From a virus: a stretch of 64,000 bases of DNA. A model generated the notes under the pieces. It saw only the letters and a list, made by a program, of their open reading frames with translations. It was not told where the DNA came from and ran no database searches. Made by a program: the position numbers and the translations under genes. The stretch is from IMG/VR virus record IMGVR_UViG_3300030616_000016, positions 70,561 through 134,560 of that record; one strand, given 5' to 3'. Positions 878 to 45,196 of this stretch are shown in pieces. Position 1 is the stretch's first letter. Every line of letters begins with the position of its first letter.

Positions 878-2026
878 TTAGAACGAGTCAGCGCTTTCCT
901 TTTCTCTAACTGCTCTTTTTATTTGACTACTTAGTCTTGCGTGTGATTGCTTTTCTTTTGCTATGTCTTCTAATATTTCTATATCTTTACTGCTTAACAA
1001 CTTTCTTACTCTGATAATATCAAGGTGAGCAGCATATGATAGAGTTGCAAACAATGTTTCCAACTCCTTTTTATCACATTCATAATTCATGACTTTATGG
1101 ATCCACCCTTTATATTGCTTATATTTTTTGGATCCTATTCCACTAATTCTTCTTGCCATTGTTCTACGACTTATGTCAACTCCAAATACAACACCCAATG
1201 CACTTATTCTATTTATACCGCTTAACATAACTTTTGACTTATGTTTATTAAATCTCATTCCTTCTACTGCTACGGCCTTATTTGCGCACTTGAAAATATC
1301 ATTTATCCATTCTTTCCAGAATCTTTTAGATATGTAAGGCATAGAGCTACTTAGTTGTATGTCGTCAGCATATCTTGAATATCTGATCCTTCCATATGGC
1401 CAACCCATGCTTGACATTGTTATATCAAACTTTCTCATACATAGATTTGATATTACAGGACTTGATGGAGCACCTTGTGGTAATCCATTTGTCATTGAAA
1501 CAAGAGGTATTAATGGTATCTTATATTTTCTGCAGCATGTATCTACAGTATGTAATGATATAAGCATCTTTCTAATATGTTTTGCTTTAATAGATGGAAA
1601 GAAGTTCTTAATATCCATACTAATCATTATTCTAGCTCCATCATGTATCGACTGTAATTTGTTAATTGCAGTTTGGAAGCGTCTAGAACGTCTTAGTATT
1701 CTTCTAAAAGATTCTTGTGTTGTAAACAGCGGTTTTGGACTATATGCTAAGCTATGTCCATTTCTGTCATACTTTTGCAATAGCCATGAGACATATCTTT
1801 GTGCCGTTTTTAAGTCTTCGTCTGGCTCATGTAAATGCCTGATGCCACCTGATCTTTTTCTTATCATGTGGTGTGTATATCTTGAGTCTCTATCGTTTGA
1901 GTTTTGTTGTAAGTCTTCAAACAATTGCTGAATTGTAATACCAGATGGCAAGACTAGACTTAGAAAATTGTCAGGAGTTATATCATGAAGTCTCAGTTTC
2001 TTCTTTATCTGATTCTGTTCCATCAT
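878..2026 (-). CDS. reverse transcriptase (free-standing retron / group-II-intron-like RT, 382 aa)
   Basis: RT motifs: IRKRSGGIRHLHEP (1), ISMDIKNFFPSI (2), GLPQGAPSSPVISNL (4), YSRYADDIQL (5, YADD), NKHKSKV (7); the C-terminal KGWIHKVMNY resembles a thumb/X region. QGxxxSP is not the DGR-type IGxxxSQ. Its start overlaps the recA-like stop by 44 nt. Confidence 0.8.
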   Translation of the reverse strand: MMEQNQIKKKLRLHDITPDNFLSLVLPSGITIQQLFEDLQQNSNDRDSRYTHHMIRKRSGGIRHLHEPDEDLKTAQRYVSWLLQKYDRNGHSLAYSPKPLFTTQESFRRILRRSRRFQTAINKLQSIHDGARIMISMDIKNFFPSIKAKHIRKMLISLHTVDTCCRKYKIPLIPLVSMTNGLPQGAPSSPVISNLCMRKFDITMSSMGWPYGRIRYSRYADDIQLSSSMPYISKRFWKEWINDIFKCANKAVAVEGMRFNKHKSKVMLSGINRISALGVVFGVDISRRTMARRISGIGSKKYKQYKGWIHKVMNYECDKKELETLFATLSYAAHLDIIRVRKLLSSKDIEILEDIAKEKQSHARLSSQIKRAVREKESADSF

Positions 2027-3107
2027 CTCCGCCTTCCGATTCCGTATTGTCAGATATTAATTTGGTTATATCATTGTTTGCTGCAAATTCATATAGTGCT
2101 ATTATTCCTTGCACGCTTTCTTCGCCTATGTAGTAGTATCCACCACGCTTGGTGATTTTACCATCTACAATCATTTGATCTACTAAAAATCTTTCTTCAC
2201 TAAACCCATGATTAAAGATGAATGGATATTTTACTTCGGCTCCCTCCGGCATAGTACCAGACTGTCTAGTCTTATTGATTTTCATGTAATGCATGAAGCC
2301 AATAATTTTCTCTTTCTTCTTTCCATCTTCTTCTACAATGGCAGCTGGAGCTTCGCTTTTGCTACCTCTACGAGTCATCAGCCTTACGTGTGTAAAATGC
2401 TTAACCGCATTTCCTCCCTTAACGAGAGTTAGGTCACCATATCCACCAATATTGGTGTATATTTGACCAATCATTATGATTGTTGTGTTTGTCTTTGCTG
2501 CAGGACCACAAGCAAGTCTTAGGAACTGGCTCATTTTTCTTTGAAGAACACCGATGGTATCATCGTTTAGGCTACGGTTAGTACCGGTTTTACTTTCGAG
2601 TTCTGCGCGTGGAAGCAGACCGCCAATTGAATCAATAACTACGATGTCTACTAAATTCTCTCTCATAATGTCGAGACATTTATCTAGCATGTTCTCCATC
2701 GTATCTTTCTCAATTATAAAGAGCTCATCTGTATTGACTCCTTGTACTTTTAACCACTCTTTATCCAATGCTTCTTCTGCATCAACCCAGCATGCAATAC
2801 CATGGTTTTTCTGAACTTCTGCTACACATCTTGCACATGCAGTGCCTTTAGCTGTCTGTTCTGGTCCGGCGATTGTAACAATTTTACCTCTAGGAAAACC
2901 TCCGCCTAAATAGTCATCCCAGCCTTTAATGCCGGTTGATATTCTACCGTAATCCTCTAGTCCAAAATGTACAATTTGATTTTCATCATCGATGTCTTTG
3001 TTAATAGAAGTCGCTACTCTTTTTAGACGAGCCATCTTCTCTGCTTTTATATCTTGTGGAGATACAATCTTTTCTTCACTAGTATCTTTGCTTTTTCTCT
3101 TAGCCAT
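1983..3107 (-). CDS. recA: RecA-family recombinase (374 aa) with acidic C-terminal tail
   Basis: Aligns to the bacterial RecA core: GKIVTIAGPEQTAKGT (P-loop region), VDIVVIDSIGGLLPRAELE, IIMIGQI, GGNAVKHFTHVRLMTRRGS. GGAAG lies upstream of the ATG. Confidence 0.85.
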   Translation of the reverse strand: MAKRKSKDTSEEKIVSPQDIKAEKMARLKRVATSINKDIDDENQIVHFGLEDYGRISTGIKGWDDYLGGGFPRGKIVTIAGPEQTAKGTACARCVAEVQKNHGIACWVDAEEALDKEWLKVQGVNTDELFIIEKDTMENMLDKCLDIMRENLVDIVVIDSIGGLLPRAELESKTGTNRSLNDDTIGVLQRKMSQFLRLACGPAAKTNTTIIMIGQIYTNIGGYGDLTLVKGGNAVKHFTHVRLMTRRGSKSEAPAAIVEEDGKKKEKIIGFMHYMKINKTRQSGTMPEGAEVKYPFIFNHGFSEERFLVDQMIVDGKITKRGGYYYIGEESVQGIIALYEFAANNDITKLISDNTESEGGDDGTESDKEETETS

Positions 3108-10939: not shown

Positions 10940-11614
10940 TCAACTACAAGGCCACACTAGCCTGTAGTCCGCTGACCCTTTTAGAAACATTAATTCATCC
11001 ATAGATAAATTATGTTCATTTGCAACTATAAATCCTATGTTTCCGTAGTCATCGAATCTCATAAGAGATATAAAGTTTTCTATTCCGAACCTATTTTTTG
11101 ATTCGTTTCCACAATAAACGCAATTTGGAAATCCGTATAGCATTTTAGAACCACATAGACCACACTCTTCTTTAGACTCCAGTTTGTAAACTCTTAGTTC
11201 TTTTAGTATTCTTTCATTAATCATAAACGATTGTTGCCCAAGTTTTACCTCTGTACGTTCATGCAAATCTACAAGAGCATCAAATGGAATTCGATTGATC
11301 CAGTAATTTAATGGTCTTAAGCTAGCTGTTCTATTTCTATATATAAGTAAGTTAACTAGTATTTTGTCTGCACATATGGGAGAGCCTTCTTTAAAAATAT
11401 ATCCCATAATTTTATTAGTTCCAATAACATTTCTAGAGCTTCCAATTTCTGGCACTGCTAATGTTAAGCGATTTGGGCTTAGGACTATATCCCATTTCTT
11501 TGATAAATCTTGAGGCTCGTCTGGGTTGTGAGGAGTTATATGCGCCAGCTTTTCTTCTATAGCTCCACGAAATATTGAGCTTTTTCTTCGCTCTAGACAT
11601 TGCGACATATACAA
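10940..11614 (-). CDS. hypothetical protein with CxxCG-x9-CxYCG zinc ribbon; the start may be the internal Met at about 11407 because the ORF overlaps the helicase 3' end
   Basis: ECGLCGSKMLYGFPNCVYCG; the ORF overlaps the uvrD-like C-terminus by 180 nt in another frame. Confidence 0.4.
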   Translation of the reverse strand: MYMSQCLERRKSSIFRGAIEEKLAHITPHNPDEPQDLSKKWDIVLSPNRLTLAVPEIGSSRNVIGTNKIMGYIFKEGSPICADKILVNLLIYRNRTASLRPLNYWINRIPFDALVDLHERTEVKLGQQSFMINERILKELRVYKLESKEECGLCGSKMLYGFPNCVYCGNESKNRFGIENFISLMRFDDYGNIGFIVANEHNLSMDELMFLKGSADYRLVWPCS

Positions 11615-21872: not shown

Positions 21873-23167
21873 TACCCCACGCCTAAAGGCGGGGGCTTCC
21901 TAATTCATCGAAAATTGCGTTCCATACTGGCTACGTCTTACATCTTCTCCAAAGGCTTTAGGTTCCCCTTGCCCAGGGGTACAAAATGCAAAATTCAAAA
22001 TATTACTAGATGCAAGGGCATCTCTATCGTGTTTGGCACCACAAGTGCAAGTCCAATATCTGTCACTTAGCTTAAGATTATTATTTATAGCGCCGCACTG
22101 GTTACACATCTTGCTGGATGGTTCAAATCTTCCTATAGTCAAAACATGCTTTCCATACCAACCTGCCTTATACTCAAGAAAGGTACGAAAAGTATACCAT
22201 CCAACATCAGAGATAGCCTTGGCCAAACAATGATTCTTCACCATTCCAGAAACGTTTAAATCCTCAAGACACACTGCTTGGTTCTCGTCAATGAGCCTTT
22301 TGGACAATTTATGCAAAAAATCTTTACGTTGATTAGAAATCTTCTCATGTATCAACGCTACCTTCCTACGAGCCTTGTTTCTATTTGAAGAACCTTTCTT
22401 CTTCTTTGATAATTGTTTTTGCTTTCTTGCCAATCTTCTTTCAAGTTTCTTTAGGTATCTTGGATTATCTATTTTCTCGCCTGTTGATAGTGTTGCAAAA
22501 TGTTTTAATCCAACGTCAACACCTACACTATTATCTCGTTCAGGATTACATTTGATAGGTAATTCTTCTCCATTGTCAACCAAAATAGAAGCAAAGTATT
22601 TCCCAGAAGGAGCCATGAATATAGTTACAGTTTTAATATTGCCTTCAAATTGTCTATGGAATTTGCATTTGATGCCATCACGGAATTTCATTACATATAG
22701 CCTATTATTATCAAAATCCACATTACTTCCTTGTGGAAATTGACAAGATTGCTTTTTGAATTTCTTCTTAAATTGAGGATATCTTGCCTGTTTCTTAAAA
22801 AACCGCCGGAAAGCATTGTCAAGGTTTCTAAAGGCCATTTGCAAAGATTGACTATTAACTTCCTTCAGCCAACCATGCTCAGATTTCATATGTTTCAATT
22901 GCTTTATCAAATCAAAACAGGAAGGAGATTTCCCCGTTTTTTGATAAGACTCTGTTTTCTTTTGGAGTCCCAAATTGTATATGAACCGTACACAACCAAA
23001 ATGCTTCACAAGAAGCTCCTGTTGTTTTTTGTTGGGGTATATTTTGTATTTATATGCTCGTATCATTATATTTATAGTATAGCACAGGTTTCTGTAAATG
23101 TCAAGAGAAAAACGCATTCTTATATCCCCATGGCTAAAGCCAGGGGTCTTACGAATGCACCTTGATA
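21866..23167 (-). mobile_element. IS200/IS605-family tnpB-only (IS1341-like) element with subterminal imperfect hairpins
   Basis: Left end begins TTATCAAGGTGCATTCGTAAGACCCCTGGCTTTAGCCATGGGG; right end finishes CCCCCGCCTTTAGGCGTGGGGTAATGTCAC. Both ends recur at 33634-33883 and 62731-62781. Confidence 0.7.
21900..23066 (-). CDS. tnpB: TnpB (OrfB) RuvC-like RNA-guided nuclease / IS605 accessory protein
   Basis: MIRAYKYKIYPNKKQQELL...FGCVRFIYN N-terminus; C-terminal CNQCG...CTCG zinc finger; RuvC-like regions. Confidence 0.85.
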   Translation of the reverse strand: MIRAYKYKIYPNKKQQELLVKHFGCVRFIYNLGLQKKTESYQKTGKSPSCFDLIKQLKHMKSEHGWLKEVNSQSLQMAFRNLDNAFRRFFKKQARYPQFKKKFKKQSCQFPQGSNVDFDNNRLYVMKFRDGIKCKFHRQFEGNIKTVTIFMAPSGKYFASILVDNGEELPIKCNPERDNSVGVDVGLKHFATLSTGEKIDNPRYLKKLERRLARKQKQLSKKKKGSSNRNKARRKVALIHEKISNQRKDFLHKLSKRLIDENQAVCLEDLNVSGMVKNHCLAKAISDVGWYTFRTFLEYKAGWYGKHVLTIGRFEPSSKMCNQCGAINNNLKLSDRYWTCTCGAKHDRDALASSNILNFAFCTPGQGEPKAFGEDVRRSQYGTQFSMN

Positions 23168-23339
23168 AAAGAGCAGGAGGAAGGTATCCTCTTCCCCCTG
23201 CCAGGTTTCATTATCAAAAGCTCCAGCTGCTTTCAATTATCAGTTGAACGCTGGAATTCAATGAAATGTTGCATTTATGTTGTCTACGGCGCTATAGCCA
23301 ATTTTTAGATCTAAGTACCTGCGACCTGCCATTAGTCCA

Positions 23340-23390
23340 AGGACACATAAGGAATAAAATGGAGTGTCCTGAGGGACTTGAACCCTCAAC
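23340..23390 (-). other. tRNA 3'-half-like module: canonical T-arm (GAGGG-TTCAAGT-CCCTC) followed by AGGACAC-T-CCA, then a 7-nt complement (GTGTCCT) forming a second hairpin
   Basis: Seen in sequence on the minus strand; no D or anticodon arm could be folded. Confidence 0.3.
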
Positions 23391-23499
23391 TCAGGCATAG
23401 TTAATATTGGCGTTCGAGAAGACAACGCAACAAATGCTGAGCTTTCAGGGAATAGTCTGAATTTAGCGTGCTTTCATATTATCACCAGCTTTCGCCGCG

Positions 23500-23560
23500 T
23501 ATGCCAGTTCCGCCATCTTCCCATATAGTGGGAAGAGCAGGGTTCGAACCTGCACGGTGA
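23500..23560 (-). other. Second tRNA 3'-half-like module: T-arm (GCAGG-TTCGAAC-CCTGC) followed by TCTTCCC-A, then the complement GGGAAGA forming a hairpin
   Basis: Seen in sequence; same architecture as 23340-23390. Confidence 0.3.
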
Positions 23561-23608
23561 AGGAAAGTACTTATTTCAGCTTAACCTTAAGCTTCAGCTT
23601 GCCCTGTA

Positions 23609-24346
23609 TTATCCGAAAATGAAGTTACAGATGTCCTTGCCGATTTCTTTGCGTTCAACAGACGTGTTGTTTGCTTCTTCTCGTGCAAACTTGACTGCTC
23701 TCATAAGAACAGCAATTTTGTCAAGCATTTCTTTCTTACGAGTTGCAGAAATACATGTACTGAGCTTTGTAGTAGTCCAGTAACCGATAATCTCATCGCT
23801 GACTACAAGCTGAGTCTGTGCAGGATGCTTTTCAGTAGCAGCATAAAGAACGATAGGTTTCTCAACCTTACGTGTTTTATGTGTCTGACGCGCGCCTGAT
23901 TTGAACATTCCGGAATCTTCATCACGAGCCCATGTTTCTGCTGGATCCAGTTCAGGAAGTTTCTCGACATATGTTTTAATATCGTTCAGCTGTTTTTCGA
24001 GGTACAGCAAGAATGTGGGAGGGGCGTCTTTTACAATTACTGTGTCGCCAACCTTAATATCTGCTTTTGCAATGGTATTGCCAAAGTCTTTAGTTGCAGT
24101 AACATCAAACAGATCTGCGAGAGATTCCGCTACTTCGTTAATTACATTGTTCAGATTTTCTTGTACCTTTACTGATTCTTCTGGAAAGTTCTCACCTTCT
24201 TCGTCTTTAGGCTCATATACTTTATGAAGGCCATTGAATATTTGTGGTGCATCTGACAAACGATGAGCCTGAGTAATGATAGAATTATGGCGGGATTTTT
24301 CGCCCTTCTCAACTGCAATAATCTGATTAAGTTTAACTTCAGACAT
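23609..24346 (-). CDS. hypothetical protein (245 aa), locally higher GC
   Basis: minus-strand ORF. Confidence 0.5.
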   Translation of the reverse strand: MSEVKLNQIIAVEKGEKSRHNSIITQAHRLSDAPQIFNGLHKVYEPKDEEGENFPEESVKVQENLNNVINEVAESLADLFDVTATKDFGNTIAKADIKVGDTVIVKDAPPTFLLYLEKQLNDIKTYVEKLPELDPAETWARDEDSGMFKSGARQTHKTRKVEKPIVLYAATEKHPAQTQLVVSDEIIGYWTTTKLSTCISATRKKEMLDKIAVLMRAVKFAREEANNTSVERKEIGKDICNFIFG

Positions 24347-27428: not shown

Positions 27429-28220
27429 TTAGAAATCAGTTGATTTTGCGGTTCTCATACCGCGAGCCATCATTTCTTTCACAAAGTCTTCTCCAAGACT
27501 TTCGAAGGTCGCTACATTTGAAGTTGTATCTTCAATTAATACAAACTTCTTAATATTCTCATCGCCGAAGTTATCAGCAATGTCTCTTACTGTATTTGCA
27601 ACACAGTGTGACAGAGCTTCTCCAGTTATGAGAATATCGTCTGCTTCCAGTAGGCTATCAAGAAGATTGCCATTAAGTCTTGTAGTAGGGTCAGACGGGT
27701 CTTCTACATCGGCTTTTACTGCTGAGTAGTGTTCTGTAAAAGGATTAGACCCTTTAGTAACATAGTCAATCATAGCAAACTGATTTTCCCACTCAGTTAT
27801 TGCTTCGAACACATTAGCATCGATTGAATGTCCTTGCGAACCAATAAGACAATGTGGCCGCCAGATGCAGAGAACATATCTGCCATTGTCTTCAAGTGTT
27901 TTTGTATAATCTGAAGCTTTCTGTTGAAGAGCTGGGTTATAGGAATGCCAGACACCATTTTTTACATCATCATGGGATATTACTGTAAATGGGTTTGGAT
28001 GTTTACCATCTTTATCAACCCAGAATATAGGATGTGCAATATGAATGGTTCTGTGAGAATCCATTGTAATATGGATATCATCTAATCCGTCTTTCATTCT
28101 GTTGACCATTTCTGCAAGACGTTTCATATCCTCATCTGCTCTAGGAACAACTAGGGCTCCTTTTGGATTACAGAAGTCATATTGAGGATCAATAGCAAGA
28201 AGATGAGTTTTCTTGTTCAT
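27429..28220 (-). CDS. isochorismatase-family cysteine hydrolase, nicotinamidase (PncA)-like
   Basis: LLAIDPQYDFCNPKGALVVP (PncA N-terminal D...DF) and LITGEALSHCVANTVRD (catalytic Cys motif). Confidence 0.65.
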   Translation of the reverse strand: MNKKTHLLAIDPQYDFCNPKGALVVPRADEDMKRLAEMVNRMKDGLDDIHITMDSHRTIHIAHPIFWVDKDGKHPNPFTVISHDDVKNGVWHSYNPALQQKASDYTKTLEDNGRYVLCIWRPHCLIGSQGHSIDANVFEAITEWENQFAMIDYVTKGSNPFTEHYSAVKADVEDPSDPTTRLNGNLLDSLLEADDILITGEALSHCVANTVRDIADNFGDENIKKFVLIEDTTSNVATFESLGEDFVKEMMARGMRTAKSTDF

Positions 28221-28239
28221 AATTGCTGACCTTTCTTAG

Positions 28240-29895
28240 TTATTTTTTAATACTGATAGAGAACATTTCTTTATCCTCTGTAAAGTATACACTGGTACCA
28301 TCAGTGTATAGTGGCATTGATGAGTCTATCGGCGGATTAGTAATAATGCGTTTTTGATTATCTTTAGAGATCTCAATCTTTTGATCGCTAAATACATCAA
28401 TGCAAACTCCATTATTAAGAACAATGAAATTGATATTATCAACATCGCGCTCTTCTTTGTCTAGCAGAATACCTTTATTTTCTTTGCTGCATAGTTTGAA
28501 TCGGAATCTATAATATTTACCAGATTCTTCTGCTATGCATACTAGAATTCCTCTGCTATGTTTTGCATTGATTATTCTAAGTCCATGGAGTTCCTCAATA
28601 GGACCTAGAAAACTACCAGAATCTTCTAATGGCGCATATGCCCAACATTTGTCTAGGAAGTTGCTAATTACTACTCCACTAAACATTTGATTCATAGTAC
28701 CAAGATTTTGGGATGGATTCGAGCATGCCGCGCTCTTATTCCCCATATTTTTTGCATATACCTCATATACTGAGGCGCCGTTTCTGCAAAATATACTACC
28801 ATTGTATATCATGGCTTTGTCTGCGGCAAATTTACCTGGTATATCCGTTTCTATTTCTACACAGCCATTATCAATTATGCCTAACACAGGGTCAGGAGAT
28901 AGATTGCATAGAAATGCCTTTTTATTGGATATATCCTTAAATATGGATTTACCACAGTATATTGCCTTATCCGTAAATGTATAGAAAATACCATTTAGGA
29001 ATTGTATTGATTTAATCGGCTCATTGTACTTATACATTGATTTAATGTCAAAATTTGCTGTGCTTCTTATAGTCTTTTGAACCATAGCTATATTAATTGT
29101 AGCGTCAGGTTTAGGTGGAGCGCTGCGTTTATTCTCAATGAATATTGACTTAAACCACTCCATATGAGCTTTAGGAATAACTGAGAAGTCTTGACATACG
29201 GATGGAATGGTAACCTTACTATCAAATACGGATATACCATCATCCATTCGCTTAGTAAATTCTCTTGGTTTATAGTCTGGGTGTTTACCCTTATAAGGAT
29301 GGATACCAACATAAAGCTGAAATGCTATTACTGCAAACGAGAACCAATCGCTTAGTTCTGTGAACTTTTTGGCTAAGCGGTCTCTTATTGAATCCATAAT
29401 AGCATTAGCTGGAAATGACTTTGTCTGATAACTGTCAACGTCAATAAAGTAAGGTACTTTATGACCTTTGTCTATCAGAAAGTTCATTTCATTCATATCT
29501 ACTATCAGGCATTGTTTAGAATGAATGTGCTCGACCGTGTCTTGTATATTGCGCACAATTTCTAATACTTGATTAGGAGATATATTATTATCTTTTCTGT
29601 ACTGCTTAGTAAAGAGCTTGCATAGAGCACTTGTCTCTTTAATATACTTCATTGTATATCCGATGACATTGCTTGTCTTTTTATCGCAAACAATATCTTC
29701 CGGTTTGATAACATTGCCGGCTGTTATATAGCCAAGCTCTTCAATCTTTCTTAATGGTATCATATGCTTGATATCATTATAAATCTTGAAGGCAATATTG
29801 TCTTTTTTATATACAGAACCTTGACCACCAGATGCAATAAAATCATTGTCTTTCAGGTCAAATGAAGCCTTTGTTCTATTTACAATGACTCTCAT
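28240..29895 (-). CDS. Hanks-type Ser/Thr protein kinase with a C-terminal beta-rich domain
   Basis: Gly loop GGQGSVY, AFKIY (VAIK), catalytic loop HSKQCLIVDMNEMNFLI, and DVDSY (DFG-like). Confidence 0.7.
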   Translation of the reverse strand: MRVIVNRTKASFDLKDNDFIASGGQGSVYKKDNIAFKIYNDIKHMIPLRKIEELGYITAGNVIKPEDIVCDKKTSNVIGYTMKYIKETSALCKLFTKQYRKDNNISPNQVLEIVRNIQDTVEHIHSKQCLIVDMNEMNFLIDKGHKVPYFIDVDSYQTKSFPANAIMDSIRDRLAKKFTELSDWFSFAVIAFQLYVGIHPYKGKHPDYKPREFTKRMDDGISVFDSKVTIPSVCQDFSVIPKAHMEWFKSIFIENKRSAPPKPDATINIAMVQKTIRSTANFDIKSMYKYNEPIKSIQFLNGIFYTFTDKAIYCGKSIFKDISNKKAFLCNLSPDPVLGIIDNGCVEIETDIPGKFAADKAMIYNGSIFCRNGASVYEVYAKNMGNKSAACSNPSQNLGTMNQMFSGVVISNFLDKCWAYAPLEDSGSFLGPIEELHGLRIINAKHSRGILVCIAEESGKYYRFRFKLCSKENKGILLDKEERDVDNINFIVLNNGVCIDVFSDQKIEISKDNQKRIITNPPIDSSMPLYTDGTSVYFTEDKEMFSISIKK

Positions 29896-30731
29896 GGCTT
29901 ATCCTTAAGCAGTGTAGCACATGCTATATCATCAAAGTGCTTATTGTTTATTTTGGAATCCATGATGCGTATTTTCTTCATTCTTCTTTTTACAAACTCT
30001 CCTTTGAAGGTTTTATATACAGTCATTCGTATAGCGTTATCAAGCACACTTGTATTTTCAAAAGAGCTTATACCATCAGTGAACAGGCTTATGCTCATTC
30101 CTTCTGCCATTGGCGCACTAGACATTATGTATGGCTCGAACATGGGGATTGTAGAGCTCTTAAAGTCTTCGTCTGGGTTATATGACAATACTGTTTTTTC
30201 TGGATTGCCCAATATATCCATAGTATTCATATAGTCTTTAATCTTTTCATCTTCCATGCGATATGCAAGATAGTATGGCATGTTAGATGTATATGATATT
30301 TCTTCAATACGAATCCATGGATTTGGGTCATTCGCTCTATCAAAACCATCATTAAAGACAACTACTCCATCTCCCCATACTGCTATGCCAAATCCCTCAT
30401 TATTGGCTATTACTACCATAAGCGTGGCATAGAATGTCTGGATGTCAAGACAAAGAGCTATTGCTACTTTTGATAGCGCTCCCAACACTTTATTTTCAAA
30501 TGAACAAAGAGCAGTTGATAATGTCTTGTGTCCAAACATAACTATTGAGCTTCTTAATGCTTGTTCTGCAGCAATTCCAAGTATTTTTGCACCAAGGTCT
30601 GTGTTTTGTGCAGAAGAACAGCCGTCACAGACGATACCATAGGAATAACCATAGATATCGCCTGTGATAGCATAATCTTCACACATATCATGACTGGCAC
30701 CAATTTCTACAAAACTATCTTTCTGTATCAT
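29892..30731 (-). CDS. PP2C-family Ser/Thr phosphatase
   Basis: GASHDMCEDYAI ... GIVCDGCSS ... DGVVVFNDG are the PP2C metal-binding Asp motifs. Confidence 0.65.
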   Translation of the reverse strand: MIQKDSFVEIGASHDMCEDYAITGDIYGYSYGIVCDGCSSAQNTDLGAKILGIAAEQALRSSIVMFGHKTLSTALCSFENKVLGALSKVAIALCLDIQTFYATLMVVIANNEGFGIAVWGDGVVVFNDGFDRANDPNPWIRIEEISYTSNMPYYLAYRMEDEKIKDYMNTMDILGNPEKTVLSYNPDEDFKSSTIPMFEPYIMSSAPMAEGMSISLFTDGISSFENTSVLDNAIRMTVYKTFKGEFVKRRMKKIRIMDSKINNKHFDDIACATLLKDKP

Positions 30732-30747
30732 TGGTACTCCCAGTCAT

Positions 30748-31497
30748 TTAGAAGTTAAGAATTGAAGATGCCGAGCCGGATCCAAGAGACTGTGATTGTG
30801 AGGATATGCTTTGACTCACAAATTCAGCCAGCTTTGCAAGCTTGGATGGAGTAGCTTCTCCGACAGATACGTATTTATCAAGGTTTGCATTATCCTTGAA
30901 TGTAGTCAAGAAATTCTTGACTGCAGGATCTTTATCAATCCCGATAAGAACCGTAATAATTGATTCGAGGCTTTCTTCTCTTGTGATATCATCTACTAAC
31001 GTAGCAACTTGTACTGGCGCATTATTTGATTGATTATCAGCGCCATCTGTAATGATAAATACAATTGCATTTGTTAGGAGATCTACTTTATCATACATCT
31101 GCTTGCTATACTGATGTGTTGCTTCGATGCCTTCATATGTTGCATCAAATAATGCAGTTGTACCGCCTGTACGGATGATATTAGAGTATTCATCATCACT
31201 AATATCACTTAGGAGGCGGAAACCATGCATTTCGTTCAGATTAGCATTGAATGTAGTGAAGCGAACCATTAAGTTTTCTGCACGTGGAGACTTTTTGCAT
31301 GATTCGATTACAGTTTTCAGCATATCCTCAATATCATCTTTGTATGGAGACACTGAAGAAGATACGTCGATAATAATTGAAACGAGTGTATATTCAGAAG
31401 CACCTAGTTCATCAAGCTTTACAGCACTGAATCTGAAGTTTGATGCAGTCTGCATACTGGTTATGTTTGCAAGATCTTTATCCATTAATCTTGGCAT
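30748..31497 (-). CDS. von Willebrand factor A (vWA, TerY-like) domain protein
   Basis: MIDAS: IIIDVSSSV (DxSxS), GGTTAL, FIITDGADN. Confidence 0.75.
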   Translation of the reverse strand: MPRLMDKDLANITSMQTASNFRFSAVKLDELGASEYTLVSIIIDVSSSVSPYKDDIEDMLKTVIESCKKSPRAENLMVRFTTFNANLNEMHGFRLLSDISDDEYSNIIRTGGTTALFDATYEGIEATHQYSKQMYDKVDLLTNAIVFIITDGADNQSNNAPVQVATLVDDITREESLESIITVLIGIDKDPAVKNFLTTFKDNANLDKYVSVGEATPSKLAKLAEFVSQSISSQSQSLGSGSASSILNF

Positions 31498-31499
31498 GG

Positions 31500-32486
31500 T
31501 TATTTCCTTTCTTTGTTAAGCCTGTTTCCTTCTCCTAAATGCATAAGGGGAAGCGGTTTAGGGCTATCACCATTTAGGAAGTATACCTTGGTAGCCGGGT
31601 CTTTTGTAATTGTACCTAGTGCTTTAAGTGCTTCAAGCTGGATATATGCAGGATTATTTGCAATAGCATCGTTAACTTTCTGAATTTCATATGCTTTTGC
31701 GTCTGCAAGGATCTTCTGTTTTTCTGCTGAAAGCATTGCGGCGTCTTTATCTGCCTGAGCAGTTTTAACTTTCTTCTGCTGTTCAGTCTCAAACCTGCGC
31801 AACTCTGCTTTCTCACGTTCAGCTTCCTGCTCGCGTTTCTTCTTACTCTCAACACCTTGCTGGATTGTGTTGGGAAGTTGAATATTTCTAATGAGAACAG
31901 CTTCAACATCAAGGCCCTTTGGTGCAACGTATTCTTTAATTGAAGTAAGAAGATTTGCCTGCATCTTTTGCTGAATTTCTTCCCTAAAGAATGACTCTGC
32001 AGTTTTCACACTTTTACCTTGTTCTCGCAATAAGCTTCGGAACTTGGGTAACATGTGTACTTCCATAAGGTCTTTAGGATTACCGGTTTCTTGCAGAATG
32101 TCTGGAGCCATAGACTTGATAATTCGATACTGACAGCTTACATCGAATGTCGTAACAAGCTGGTCCATACTTGGGATGGGAACCTGGCTCATTGTAATAC
32201 TTTTCTGACGACAATCGAATTCTTCCCAATCATACAAAGGATTGGTAAGGTGAATGCCTGCTTCATAGGGCTGATCAACGACTTTACCAAAGAATGTAGC
32301 TACTCCAATATGTCCTGGAGGTATTGAGATAACACATGAAGCGATGAGAGTAATAGCGCCGACGGCTCCTACCAGTAGACCGCCAAGAATATAAGGACGC
32401 CTTTTTTCTTCTGATTTAGCCATAAGACCATATACAAACACCAACAAACCGATTAATGCAATTATAATACCAAGAGCAAGTATCAT
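31500..32486 (-). CDS. SPFH/band-7 (stomatin/flotillin-like) membrane protein with coiled-coil C-terminus
   Basis: N-terminal TM helices followed by an SPFH core (GHIGVATFFGKVVD...), then EQQKKVKTAQADKDAAML coiled coil. Confidence 0.7.
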   Translation of the reverse strand: MILALGIIIALIGLLVFVYGLMAKSEEKRRPYILGGLLVGAVGAITLIASCVISIPPGHIGVATFFGKVVDQPYEAGIHLTNPLYDWEEFDCRQKSITMSQVPIPSMDQLVTTFDVSCQYRIIKSMAPDILQETGNPKDLMEVHMLPKFRSLLREQGKSVKTAESFFREEIQQKMQANLLTSIKEYVAPKGLDVEAVLIRNIQLPNTIQQGVESKKKREQEAEREKAELRRFETEQQKKVKTAQADKDAAMLSAEKQKILADAKAYEIQKVNDAIANNPAYIQLEALKALGTITKDPATKVYFLNGDSPKPLPLMHLGEGNRLNKERK

Positions 32487-43009: not shown

Positions 43010-44020
43010 TTACCAAGGCCAGTTAGGGACCTCGATCTTATGAACATGTTTCAAGTGATCGAATGCATAAGGCTGGAAAGGCGCTTCGACGCCATAATGA
43101 GCACGATAAGCAACTTCCCACCAGTGAGACAGGAATATCTTAGTAGCCCATCTCTTACTTCTCATATGAATCTGACTATTGGGGAGCTTGCCTTCGCGAT
43201 ATATTGCCCTCTGTTTATGACCAGGCACTCTTCGAAGAACTTCTCGTGCAATATGCGCATATTCCTTGGCTTCATTCTTACGCGACTCGATAATCTTCCT
43301 TTCAACAACAAGATGTCCATAGAGATCTTTTGGATTGTTGCATGTCATATTGAAAGACTCACCGATTTTCCAGCAGAGTGTTTTCAGTTCTGAATTCCAG
43401 GGACGCATTGACAGACCTCTGTAAAGCGTCTTGCCTGTATGAACTCCGCCTCCTTTCTGTAATGAGAGACGAAGTGCGGTAGCTGCTTTGATTCCTCCGG
43501 CTTCTTGTATCGCATTTGCTACCTTAATAGCATCTTCTTCAGATACTCTTCTTGTACTATCAGGATTAATACCGGCTTCGTCAACCATGATTTCTCTTGT
43601 AACTTTCTTGCCAAGCCAGCGCTTTCCGTCTACAAGACCAGCATAGCTATAGATATGTCCTGGAGTCTTAGCTTTGTCCATATCTATATGGGCAATAAGA
43701 CCGGCGCTGATAACAGGGCCAATACCTACAACTGATTGAGCCCATGTACCAATTTTTGTTGATAATGAGAAATGATTGAGCGCGAGCTTCACCTGATTCT
43801 CAAGACGCTCCGCATTCTTAAGAAACCAATCAAGCACTTCCATTGGAGGGTCGTCTACGCCCTGCTCTGCTGCTCTAAGCTGACCAGCAAGCCTGATTCT
43901 CTGGTTCTGCATGGTATAATAACTATCTACCAGATAGCGGGCTTCCTGACGCGTAATCTTTCTTGACGCGTTTCTTATGTCTTTACCTACTCTTTCAATA
44001 ATTTCTTCAATAGCCATCAC
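43010..44020 (-). CDS. hypothetical Trp-rich protein (336 aa) with a Transposase_20-like helix-hairpin-helix motif; locally GC-rich
   Basis: VVGIGPVISAGLIAHIDMDKAKTPGHIYSYAGLV resembles the IS110-family C-terminal HhH (PGIG..tA..L.A...D..RF.s...L.sYAGL). No DEDD N-terminal domain was recognised. Confidence 0.45.
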   Translation of the reverse strand: MMAIEEIIERVGKDIRNASRKITRQEARYLVDSYYTMQNQRIRLAGQLRAAEQGVDDPPMEVLDWFLKNAERLENQVKLALNHFSLSTKIGTWAQSVVGIGPVISAGLIAHIDMDKAKTPGHIYSYAGLVDGKRWLGKKVTREIMVDEAGINPDSTRRVSEEDAIKVANAIQEAGGIKAATALRLSLQKGGGVHTGKTLYRGLSMRPWNSELKTLCWKIGESFNMTCNNPKDLYGHLVVERKIIESRKNEAKEYAHIAREVLRRVPGHKQRAIYREGKLPNSQIHMRSKRWATKIFLSHWWEVAYRAHYGVEAPFQPYAFDHLKHVHKIEVPNWPW

Positions 44021-44038: not shown

Positions 44039-45196
44039 TTAAAGCATGTTTACCATGCTATTATATAGACCCGCATACTCTTGCGGGCCTGAACGTTTGC
44101 CTGGGTTATCGGACAATTTAACAGTAGGAACAAAGCCCTCTCTATTATATGAACAGGCAGTCATTTTAATAACGATATTAAGAGGATCTACTCCAACATC
44201 ATTAGTGAAATTAGTGCCTATACCATATACTGTTTTGATTCTTTTGTTTACATATTCTTCTATCTCAAGAACCTTGTCAACATCAAGAGAGTCTGAGAAT
44301 ACAATGGTTTTTGTACTTGGATCTATACCAAGGCTCTCATAGTGTTTTATTATTTTGTCAGCAAATTCCATAGGATCGCCTGAATCTTGCCTTACACCAT
44401 CCCAAAGACTCGCTCTGACATAATCAAATGATCTTAGAAACCAATCAGTTGTATAAGTATCAGTAAGCGCTATGCCTAGTTTGCCCTTATATGTCTCTGC
44501 CCATTTATCAAGGGCAATAGAAGTAGCCATTTGAGGACCAAATATGGCGCCGTGGAACATAAACCACTCATGAGCTTGTGTGCCAATTGGTCGCATGTTA
44601 TGAGTGGTTGCTAATAATACATTACTTGTACCAAGACAGTATTGTGAAATTTGTTTTCTTGTAGACATGTCATCCAGAAGTTCATTCTGTACACCAAATG
44701 AAAATCTGCGTCTGGTTCCGAATTCTATGAAGTTGACTTTGTGCTTGATGAGTTTGTCAACCTTGTCTACATTTGTTTTATATCTTTCTTTCCTGAACTT
44801 AGGCGCTATACCAAGCTTAAGATAGTATAGCTCGCTAATAGCCGCTAATAGCGGTACTTCCCATAGTATAGCAGAATACCATGGCCCGCATATTTCTACT
44901 TTGAGATCTTCGTCTGTTTGTGTAACACATACTTCATTAGGATTGAATCGATGATGTCGTAGGTATTCTAGATATGTTGAATCAAAGACTCCAATCTTTC
45001 GCATAGCTGTAATACTATCGTCTATAAAGTATGTATGTTGCATATGATCAATAAACTCATTTAATTCCTTTTGCATACTTTCAGGGAACTCAGTCTTTGT
45101 TCTTGACTTGAATTCATATTTTACTAATGCAGATGGATAGTGTTTAAGTACTGCATTTTGCATGGCGAACTTATAGAAATCATTGTCTGCTGCCAT
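44039..45196 (-). CDS. pncB: nicotinate phosphoribosyltransferase (NAPRTase, PncB-type)
   Basis: FIEFGTRRRFS, LGTSNVLLA and VRQDSGDP signatures of the NaPRTase family. Confidence 0.8.
   Translation of the reverse strand: MAADNDFYKFAMQNAVLKHYPSALVKYEFKSRTKTEFPESMQKELNEFIDHMQHTYFIDDSITAMRKIGVFDSTYLEYLRHHRFNPNEVCVTQTDEDLKVEICGPWYSAILWEVPLLAAISELYYLKLGIAPKFRKERYKTNVDKVDKLIKHKVNFIEFGTRRRFSFGVQNELLDDMSTRKQISQYCLGTSNVLLATTHNMRPIGTQAHEWFMFHGAIFGPQMATSIALDKWAETYKGKLGIALTDTYTTDWFLRSFDYVRASLWDGVRQDSGDPMEFADKIIKHYESLGIDPSTKTIVFSDSLDVDKVLEIEEYVNKRIKTVYGIGTNFTNDVGVDPLNIVIKMTACSYNREGFVPTVKLSDNPGKRSGPQEYAGLYNSMVNML

Follow-up and report, generated by a model that had tools for sequence, protein, structure and literature searches.

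Two circularly permuted tRNA-like modules in a candidate non-coding RNA linked to DUF7873

The question raised by this locus is what kind of element carries two tRNA-like T-arms, each followed at once by an acceptor-like strand, and is called as a tRNA by no predictor. The element occupies positions 23165 to 23608 on the minus strand of a window of 64,000 nucleotides (nt), by which is meant the whole stretch of DNA analysed (positions 70,561 to 134,560 of IMG/VR record IMGVR_UViG_3300030616_000016); the contig is phage-like, measures 231.6 kb and encodes split RNA polymerase subunits. The answer proposed here, to which we assign a probability of about 0.62, is that the interval is one stable, tRNA-mimic non-coding RNA of ~440 nt which acts with the protein DUF7873 as an RNA–protein pair. 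That it is a real RNA gene of the architecture described below, linked to DUF7873, is held with high confidence. Ribonucleoproteins dedicated to tRNA mimicry are, to our knowledge, uncommon among bacteria, with tmRNA–SmpB and Y RNA–Ro60 as the familiar examples. The two genes in question are the following.

23165..23608, minus strand: the complete gene of the non-coding RNA, ~440 nt long, which starts 1-3 nt past the stop codon of DUF7873, runs through the terminator U-tail and is spanned by nhmmer and covariance-model matches
23609..24346, minus strand: the DUF7873 protein gene, 245 amino acids (Pfam PF25283, E 8e-90)

Architecture of the two modules

In the first-pass annotation of the window the interval had been described as GC-rich and as bearing, on the minus strand, two modules that each consist of a T-arm, a 7-nt strand, a loop and the exact complement of that strand, with a discriminator and CCA following the strand AGGACAC. 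All of this is borne out: the G+C content is 0.42-0.46 within the interval and ~0.35 around it, both modules are present, and the discriminator and CCA are T (23363) and CCA (23362-23360), respectively. The further description, of tRNA 3' halves in a region that lacks a complete tRNA and in which no D or anticodon arm could be folded, has to be divided. Ordinary complete tRNAs are indeed absent, with ARAGORN reporting no tRNA or tmRNA in the window and Rfam 15 giving nothing at its gathering score, and no closed anticodon loop is found in either module. The D-arms, by contrast, are there, each with a canonical U8-R9 and G18G19 (23515-23497 and 23339-23323), and the modules are not halves; each is a complete tRNA body, circularly permuted. 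One strand of the connecting stem and the variable nucleotides come first, then the T-arm and the closed acceptor hairpin, and finally U8, the D-arm and the second strand of the connecting stem; it is because of this permuted order that a linear cloverleaf search fails. The arm opposite the acceptor, in the position of the anticodon stem or variable arm, is open and joins the remaining RNA, its stem being formed by the segments that flank the module (UCACC/GGUGA in module 1 and GCCUG/CAGGU in module 2, 5 base pairs (bp) each). The tRNA features present are a 7-bp acceptor stem, a 5-bp T stem with a UUCRANY loop, U8, A14, G18G19, a D stem and the 15:48 pair. Module 1, in the 5' domain of the RNA, is made up as follows.

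23556..23560, minus strand: 5' strand of the connecting stem, UCACC, which pairs with GGUGA at 23486-23482
23537..23553, minus strand: T-arm GCAGG UUCGAAC CCUGC, 100% paired over 99 sequences and covarying
23516..23536, minus strand: closed acceptor hairpin with UCUUCCC (23536-23530), discriminator A (23529), the 6-nt loop CUAUAU and GGGAAGA (23522-23516)
23497..23515, minus strand: U8-G9 and a D-arm of tRNA-Leu type, GCG GAACUGGCAUA CGC (23513-23497), its stem 100% paired
23482..23496, minus strand: stub hairpin GGCGAAAGCU (23496-23487) in the place of the anticodon arm, from the predicted fold, and the 3' strand of the connecting stem, GGUGA (23486-23482)

Module 2 is set into the long stem of the 3' domain.

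23392..23431, minus strand: 5' strand of the long stem, with GUUGC, UUGUCU, an internal loop UCUCGAAC, GCCAAU, a loop and GCCUG (23396-23392)
23371..23391, minus strand: variable loop AGUU and T-arm GAGGG UUCAAGU CCCUC (23387-23371), its stem 99% paired
23340..23370, minus strand: closed acceptor hairpin with AGGACAC (23370-23364), U (23363), CCA (23362-23360), a 13-nt loop and GUGUCCU (23346-23340)
23317..23339, minus strand: U8-G9, D-arm GACU AAUGGCA GGUC (23337-23323), G26 and the stem strand CAGGU, the D stem being 96% paired
23263..23316, minus strand: 3' strand of the module-2 stem, with the conserved ACUUAGAUCUAAA (which includes a fifth CUNA motif), AUUGGC, an internal loop UAUAGCGCCGU (consensus UUAAACGCCG), AGACAA, AUAAAU and GCAAC

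The 3' domain was tested for covariation in an alignment of 73 sequences (A2) over 34 pairs, comprising the base, middle, connecting, T, 7-bp acceptor and D stems. The pairs are formed in 92.3% of the cells, compared with 37-44% when the partner is slid by 1-3 columns, and 861 cells are changed on both sides, every helix having such double changes. In 500 shuffles the observed value was matched by none for four of five measures, the remaining one, the count of pairs changed on both sides, being reached by 27. The helices at columns 37-43/187-192, 51-57/169-176 and 69-73/148-152 are 89%, 90% and 80% paired, respectively, and the 7-bp acceptor stem of module 2 is 98.8% paired, in each case with double changes at all pairs.

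For the 5' domain, a covariance model (R1) was built on this domain in 72 homologues, the window's own sequence among them, and 99 sequences were aligned with it; the window scores 123 bits with R1, partly by construction, and aligns throughout A2 and another alignment, A3. The 7-bp acceptor stem of module 1 is 99.4% paired with double changes at all 7 pairs, and its connecting helix reaches at least 5 bp in 95% of the 99 homologues as against 58% with shuffled partners. This connecting stem occurs in two geometries among the homologues, one of which has ordinary class-I spacing, the window having the other, and the T-loop is mostly UUCGAAU or UUCGAGU. Conservation of the hairpins, checked across ~165 independent loci, is such that both modules are kept in register with compensatory changes in every helix. 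The comparison shows a single larger conserved RNA with a predicted 5' and a predicted 3' domain, each of which contains one module.

The tertiary positions point in the same direction. In module 2, where A14 is invariant, the Levitt pair 15:48 covaries in 72 of 73 sequences (A15:U48 in 48, G15:C48 in 24, another combination in 1), and this covariation supports a putative L-shaped fold; in module 1 the pair is A15:U48 in 96 of 99. Moreover, when module 2 is re-permuted in silico, the acceptor loop being opened and the open stem shut by an artificial 7-nt loop, 71 of the 73 homologues yield a tRNA call by ARAGORN, with 40 calls in the intended register compared with 5 for two-locus chimeras.

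It might be asked, in this regard, whether the modules are circularly permuted or split tRNA genes that yield decoding tRNAs, as the first-pass annotation had listed among its candidate explanations. The permuted topology of that suggestion stands: once re-permuted, the sequence passes as a tRNA with ARAGORN, the modules retain their CCA and discriminator, and a YU-NAG-R string lies 3' of the module-2 stem in ~29% of homologues. The tRNA genes do not, in that no anticodon loop is closed or conserved, a stub or linker is all that module 1 has in the place of the anticodon arm, and the non-tRNA parts of this larger RNA are conserved as strongly as the modules which are its domains. The idea that an anticodon-like segment lies 3' of the module-2 stem was itself rejected, the string fitting only 29% and its triplet varying. 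Furthermore, we know of no circularisation or splicing route for permuted tRNAs in bacteria, and decoding tRNAs are regarded as a highly improbable outcome of this locus.

Two non-permuted readings were likewise set aside. A canonical tRNA gene receives no predictor call, would take its open stem from distant strands and has a variable triplet in the anticodon place. A non-permuted cloverleaf, as a weak Rfam match and ARAGORN calls in Streptomyces and Klebsiella phage loci would have it, is at odds with a 5' segment that is conserved while the acceptor 3' strand varies. Rfam searched at E<=10 on the interval gives matches at noise level only, the best being the tRNA model with 17.4 bits against a gathering score of 29, and at the gathering score it finds only ordinary tRNAs in 11 related loci.

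Outside the modules the RNA has conserved parts of its own.

23575..23606, minus strand: 5' end of the RNA, with the P1 5' strand CAGGG (23606-23602) and segment S1, CAAGCUGAAGCUUAAGGUUAAGCUGAA, in conserved columns of alignments A3 and A4
23432..23461, minus strand: segment S2, with the P2 3' strand UUCAG (23461-23457), ACUAUU, the P1 3' strand CCCUG (23450-23446), CUCAGC (23441-23436) and AUUU
23223..23254, minus strand: a hairpin CCAGC...GCUGG from the predicted fold, lineage-variable, kept in the closest relative (L001) and elsewhere replaced or absent
23165..23202, minus strand: terminator hairpin with a conserved GGAUA loop, followed by a U-tail, from a terminator scan

The 5' end lies 1-3 nt past the stop codon of the upstream DUF7873 open reading frame (ORF), and the folding z-score of 23608-23165 against shuffles is -3.3. 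Segment S1 holds four spaced CUNA motifs, of which the last, CUGAA (23579-23575), is the P2 5' strand, and S2 reaches to the start of the GUUGC strand (23431). Among the 99 sequences aligned with R1, P1 is 67% and P2 70% paired, with double changes in both. The CUCAGC of S2 is able to pair with the first CUNA motif of S1, and covariation of the type CUNA:UN'AG is seen between that motif and the one past P1 (central pair G:C in 27, C:G in 12, U:G in 3). This pseudoknot pairing (a-f) attains 4 of 4 bp in 64% compared with 35% in controls, and a pseudoknot of the first CUNA motif with UN'AG is tentatively proposed.

The four CUNA motifs are evenly spaced in 23575-23601 and the fifth lies in 23303-23316 (minus strand), 3' of the module-2 stem; in alignments A2 and A3 they are accompanied by two or three UNAG motifs, and in the window the fifth sits inside a perfect 10-nt palindrome, UUAGAUCUAA. 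Such motifs might serve as repeated sites for a protein, in alternative pairings or in dimerisation. As to the terminator hairpin, its loop (23182-23190 in the window, minus strand) is kept as GGAUA or GGCUA across distant clades (L001, L030, L040, L026, L029 and L019), for which reason the hairpin seems to contribute to the function of the RNA.

The homologous RNAs measure 330-440 nt and sometimes have three modules. The features proposed for the family, namely DUF7873 within ~1.5 kb, a 5' segment of CAAGCUNA type, two permuted modules and the AUCGA/UUAAACGCCG internal loop, are all in the window. Towards its 3' end the RNA of Vibrio phage D491 and of a clade of Pyrinomonadaceae has a tRNA-like element of the ordinary, non-permuted kind, which either adds a third module or takes the place of module 2 (L099 7239-7314, L091 4775-4849, L105 7118-7195, L109 7120-7193, L103 4519-4590, L169 ~11133-11205 and L173 3597-3669); close relatives differ in the anticodon of this element (GUU, GAG, GAA, UAG), and UGCAAUU is a frequent sequence of its T-loop. 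In a few loci the T-arm/acceptor profile has further partial matches beyond the main RNA (L009 4122-4173, L010 1603-1654, L016 1704-1779 and L082 6532-6590), which may be additional modules or tRNA junctions.

The DUF7873 partner and its distribution

The related DUF7873 loci, in which the RNA was sought with an nhmmer profile seeded from three RNAs, comprise 80 viral loci, 80 drawn from the more than 570 species genomes that carry the gene, many of them of Streptomyces and myxobacteria, and a few obtained through exact protein look-up; the viral loci were retrieved by an alignment query, a single-protein query of the viral contigs having found none. The species genomes include Streptomyces, Actinomadura, Myxococcota, Acidobacteriota, Abditibacteriota and Herpetosiphon. 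A homologous RNA adjoins the DUF7873 gene in 164 of the 166 loci examined (85 of 86 viral or metagenomic, 79 of 80 genomic), the single exception in the viral and metagenomic set being truncated. When the ORFs of 108 non-redundant loci were clustered, DUF7873 emerged as the sole conserved neighbour, with no integrase and no TROVE protein among the conserved ones. The bacterial contexts are ordinary chromosomal ones, for example a pseudouridine kinase with a glycosidase, or an amidohydrolase with an ABC ATPase, in Streptomyces. By their synteny, the RNA and DUF7873 are shown to be an obligate pair of genes, on bacterial chromosomes as well as in phages.

The placement of the RNA bears on a further reading, in which it is a cis-acting part of the DUF7873 transcript whose tRNA-like structures recruit RNase P or RNase Z for the formation or stabilising of the mRNA 3' end, with no function of its own. 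In most loci the RNA is directly downstream of the DUF7873 gene, starting a few nt past its stop codon on the same strand, and mascRNA, which forms and stabilises the 3' end of MALAT1, offers an analogy; indeed, the mascRNA model gives a weak, sub-threshold match of 15.1 bits on module 2. Nevertheless, L003-L005 have the RNA upstream of DUF7873, where a separate terminator ends it, in L104 it is on the opposite strand, and in L112 it is 1.3 kb from the gene; moreover, a covarying structure that exceeds 300 nt and includes two or three modules is far beyond the needs of an end signal. A purely cis-acting role is therefore held to be quite unlikely.

The same neighbourhoods dispose of an attachment site. 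tRNA 3' ends are frequent targets of integrases, and the first-pass annotation had accordingly offered tRNA-derived attachment-site cores as one explanation; alternatively, the modules could be debris of the insertion sequence (IS) which lies 5-40 nt away. The presence of that IS beside the interval is as the first-pass annotation had it. The acceptor strands, however, vary between loci and covary with their own adjacent complement, the element travels with DUF7873 and has no conserved integrase neighbour, and the same RNA occurs without the IS and in chromosomal contexts that are not prophages. The likelihood of either origin is considered negligible. An omega RNA or end of an IS200/IS605 element was also rejected, the RNA being 5' of tnpB and beyond the left-end hairpin, with homologous RNAs that have no tnpB nearby.

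DUF7873 itself has 5368 homologues in the metagenomic protein set, with ~50% identity across phyla. Its AlphaFold2 (AF2) model (pLDDT 88) is a four-helix bundle with a long beta-hairpin, at the tip of which is an invariant HPAQTQ motif; a PDB sequence profile search, PHROGs, NCBIfam and PADLOC give no match for it. The gene is carried by 75 GenBank phage records, always labelled hypothetical, and cultured carriers are phages of Arthrobacter, Gordonia, Klebsiella, Vibrio and Rhizobium. The RNA, recognised in those records with the covariance model or by direct reading, falls in a region that is blank in Arthrobacter phage Mimi, taken up by small hypothetical ORFs in Gordonia phage Ronaldo and in part labelled 'tRNA-Stop(tta)' in Klebsiella phage Centimanus. 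Comparison of the interval's DNA with GenBank phages gave no match, the exact T-arm, acceptor and CCA pattern was not found in viral contigs, and literature searches, to which subscription-only papers were outside scope, returned no description of the RNA or of DUF7873. This is a widespread and apparently undescribed tRNA-mimic RNA with a dedicated protein partner.

Spurious ARAGORN tRNAs arise at several of the loci (L165 6808-6894, L117/L120 6759-6845, L118 2300-2386, L164 6753-6841 and L172 3507-3590), where the conserved 5' segment, or upstream sequence, is joined to the T-arm and acceptor 3' strand of a module; such calls are likely mis-annotations in public genomes. Were the proposed reading correct, it would add a class of large structured RNA and account for the spurious tRNA calls in the genomes that carry it, and DUF7873, an uncharacterised family, would gain a concrete and testable RNA partner.

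tRNA gene arrays occur within 3 kb in ~35 of the 80 viral loci, a location which suggests a role in the contest over host tRNA and the translation machinery. In phages the pair often borders such an array, and as many as 21 tRNA genes can lie within 3 kb of it; examples are Arthrobacter phage Mimi (L170) and Gordonia phage Ronaldo (L171) and, among many IMG/VR loci, L043, L051, L082, L016 and L059. A tRNA-like decoy and a processing signal, both named at the outset by the first-pass annotation, are possible functions of the RNA.

Proposed acceptor-loop processing and known tRNA mimics

As envisaged, the RNA would be transcribed on the minus strand after the DUF7873 gene, stop at a terminator of its own and jointly with DUF7873 constitute a ribonucleoprotein. 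Its non-tRNA scaffold, that is the CUNA repeats, the AUCGA/UUAAACGCCG internal loop and the GGAUA hairpin, would hold the protein and offer the two L-shaped modules to whatever machinery reads the acceptor, T-arm and elbow face of tRNA. The acceptor loops would be cut by RNase P and then trimmed or extended to CCA, such that the product would be a nicked RNA, its pieces base-paired, in which one or both modules have a free CCA end.

The acceptor ends carry the marks from which this cleavage is argued. In module 1 the discriminator is A in 88%, followed directly by CCA in 37%, with G+1 in 79% and U8 in 100%; in module 2, U (62%) or G (37%) is the discriminator, and the frequencies of encoded CCA, G+1 and U8 are 58%, 88% and 100%, respectively. 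The encoded CCA frequencies of 37% and 58% are to be compared with a chance expectation of ~1.6%. Just before G+1 the loops have a pyrimidine and a purine at -3/-2 in ~90-99%, and module 2 has U at -1 in 79%; the middle of the loops is variable and poor in G. A plain closed hairpin has no need of discriminator, CCA, G+1, U8 or leader, which are features read by RNase P, 3' trimming, the CCA enzyme and synthetases. Because the discriminator, G+1, the pyrimidine-purine-U leader and often CCA are kept in both modules, the acceptor loops are read as probable sites of cutting, with odds that on our analysis come out about even.

Several observations weigh against the proposed pair and its processing. 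The link of the RNA to DUF7873 appears in synteny only; the AF2 model of the protein has no informative structural relative and no recognisable RNA-binding fold, and the protein is mildly acidic, with a median isoelectric point of 6.3. In 26 of 71 loci neither module has CCA, and the CCA of the modules shows no relation to whether CCA is encoded in the neighbouring phage tRNA genes. Some acceptor loops are very short, with a minimum of 3 nt in module 1, which speaks against cleavage everywhere. Module 2 has no identity set that would be workable in the absence of an anticodon. Finally, the support for P1, P2 and the pseudoknot is only moderate, at 64-70%.

Module 1 invites comparison with minimal tRNA-Leu. 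For leucylation by the leucyl-tRNA synthetase (LeuRS) of Escherichia coli, the elements A73, A15:U48, G18G19, A20a and a canonical T-loop are reported as sufficient, the anticodon and long variable arm being dispensable, and tRNA-Leu without both arms is still charged (PMC9976931). Module 1 keeps these elements, and the set of E. coli leucine determinants, A73, U48, A14A15, G18G19 and A20a, is jointly present in 80 of 99 homologues, the window included. It differs from the minimal tRNA in that its 3' end is free only if the loop is cut, and in that about one-fifth of homologues are without the full set. When the module 1 of one homologue was compared with E. coli genomes, it aligned over the junction of a tRNA-Met and a tRNA-Leu gene, with its D-arm on the tRNA-Leu. 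Once processed, module 1 would be a plausible LeuRS substrate, with all that the E. coli enzyme requires.

Whether the RNA is aminoacylated is nonetheless doubtful. A fuller version can be written in which RNase P and 3' trimming turn the RNA into a particle of three base-paired pieces, two of them with a free CCA end, the host LeuRS attaches leucine to module 1, DUF7873 is an SmpB-like or transferase-like partner, and bacteria and phages employ the particle either at the ribosome or to donate or absorb amino acids. We consider this version unlikely; if it were true, the RNA would be a second class of aminoacylated non-tRNA RNA after tmRNA.

The closest known kind of RNA is YrlA, a type of bacterial Y RNA, and membership of that type fails. 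In YrlA a T-arm, a stem-loop in the place of the acceptor and a D-arm follow one another while the flanks pair in the place of the anticodon stem, and the conserved tRNA tertiary positions include 15:48 covariation, all as in the present modules (PMC4201824). The YrlA of Mycobacterium smegmatis has, in addition, a 7-bp acceptor-like stem that is cut by RNase P and receives CCA (PMC4201824). The present RNA differs in having DUF7873 rather than Ro60 as partner, two and sometimes three modules within 330-440 nt together with extra conserved domains, acceptor stems that are always 7 bp in both modules with a conserved discriminator, and a module 1 of tRNA-Leu type.

These likenesses of module order, open stem and 15:48 covariation are what would favour a YrlA-type Y RNA that binds a Ro60/Rsr encoded elsewhere and tethers it to an effector through the tRNA-like domain, and some jumbo phages do encode TROVE proteins (PMC7824862). 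There is, however, no TROVE/Ro60 match among the large ORFs scanned in the window or among the genes called within +/-10 kb, and none is conserved in the 108 loci. The Ro60-binding motif GNCGAAN0-1G is found in 19 of 108 sequences compared with 18.3 +/- 3.3 in shuffles, which is chance level, and no Rfam family is matched. Taken with the two modules of a 330-440-nt RNA, this makes a Ro60-tethering RNA very unlikely.

A second relative to be considered is the two-piece tmRNA with SmpB, in which the tRNA-like domain is permuted, CCA precedes a removed spacer, the pieces are base-paired and a dedicated small protein is the partner. Two-piece tmRNA is likewise cut at the loop and finished to CCA. 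The succession of T-arm, acceptor 3' strand, CCA, loop and acceptor 5' strand is that of a permuted ssrA gene, and DUF7873 as a dedicated small protein recalls SmpB, both of which would suit a two-piece permuted tmRNA or a tmRNA-like ribosome-rescue RNA. Against this, the present RNA has two modules and a full D-arm, unlike tmRNA, and G3:U70 is rare or absent, being found in none of 99 sequences for module 1 (where 3:70 is C:G, G:C, U:A or A:U) and in 2 of 73 for module 2. No tag reading frame was recognised, no frame analysis having been run, and the segment between the modules is conserved as RNA helices. ARAGORN, which is able to search for permuted tmRNA, finds none, and the Rfam tmRNA models give no score even at E<=10, including RF04321, which covers the permuted tRNA-like domain only (PMC11915505). 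A tmRNA identity is regarded as most improbable.

GOLLD and ROOL resemble the present RNA in being large, highly structured, phage-borne and often near tRNA arrays, and some relatives embed a regular tRNA-like element. The present RNA is smaller, has no Rfam match in sequence or structure, is tied to one protein gene and is common in chromosomes outside prophages; identity with GOLLD or ROOL was rejected, there being no Rfam match.

Genomic surroundings in the window

On its 3' side the RNA gene is followed by the IS mentioned above.

21900..23160, minus strand: tnpB-only element of IS200/IS605 type, outside the RNA (Pfam OrfB_IS605 and Cas12f TNB)

It is inserted a few nt past the RNA terminator, with its left-end hairpin at 23146-23126, and is considered incidental because related loci, the closest relative included, have the same RNA without it. 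A promoter scan gives a strong sigma-70-like candidate at 23104-23076 within the IS. The tnpB product in the source record has 388 amino acids, from which the real start is probably 23066 rather than 23117.

Upstream of DUF7873 is a cluster of nicotinamidase-like, Ser/Thr kinase, PP2C phosphatase and Band7/HflK-like genes (27429-32486, minus strand). PP2C, kinase or NfeD genes are near DUF7873 in two unrelated bacterial loci (L168 and L169), and overall they are not conserved neighbours. Elsewhere in the window are a NAPRTase (44039-45196, minus strand) and a weak IS110-like transposase (43010-44020, minus strand). A retron/DRT-like reverse transcriptase (RVT_1 7.6e-20; PADLOC RT_II-A 1.4e-37) adjoins a RecA-like gene, the two lying at 878-2026 and 1983-3107, respectively, both on the minus strand.

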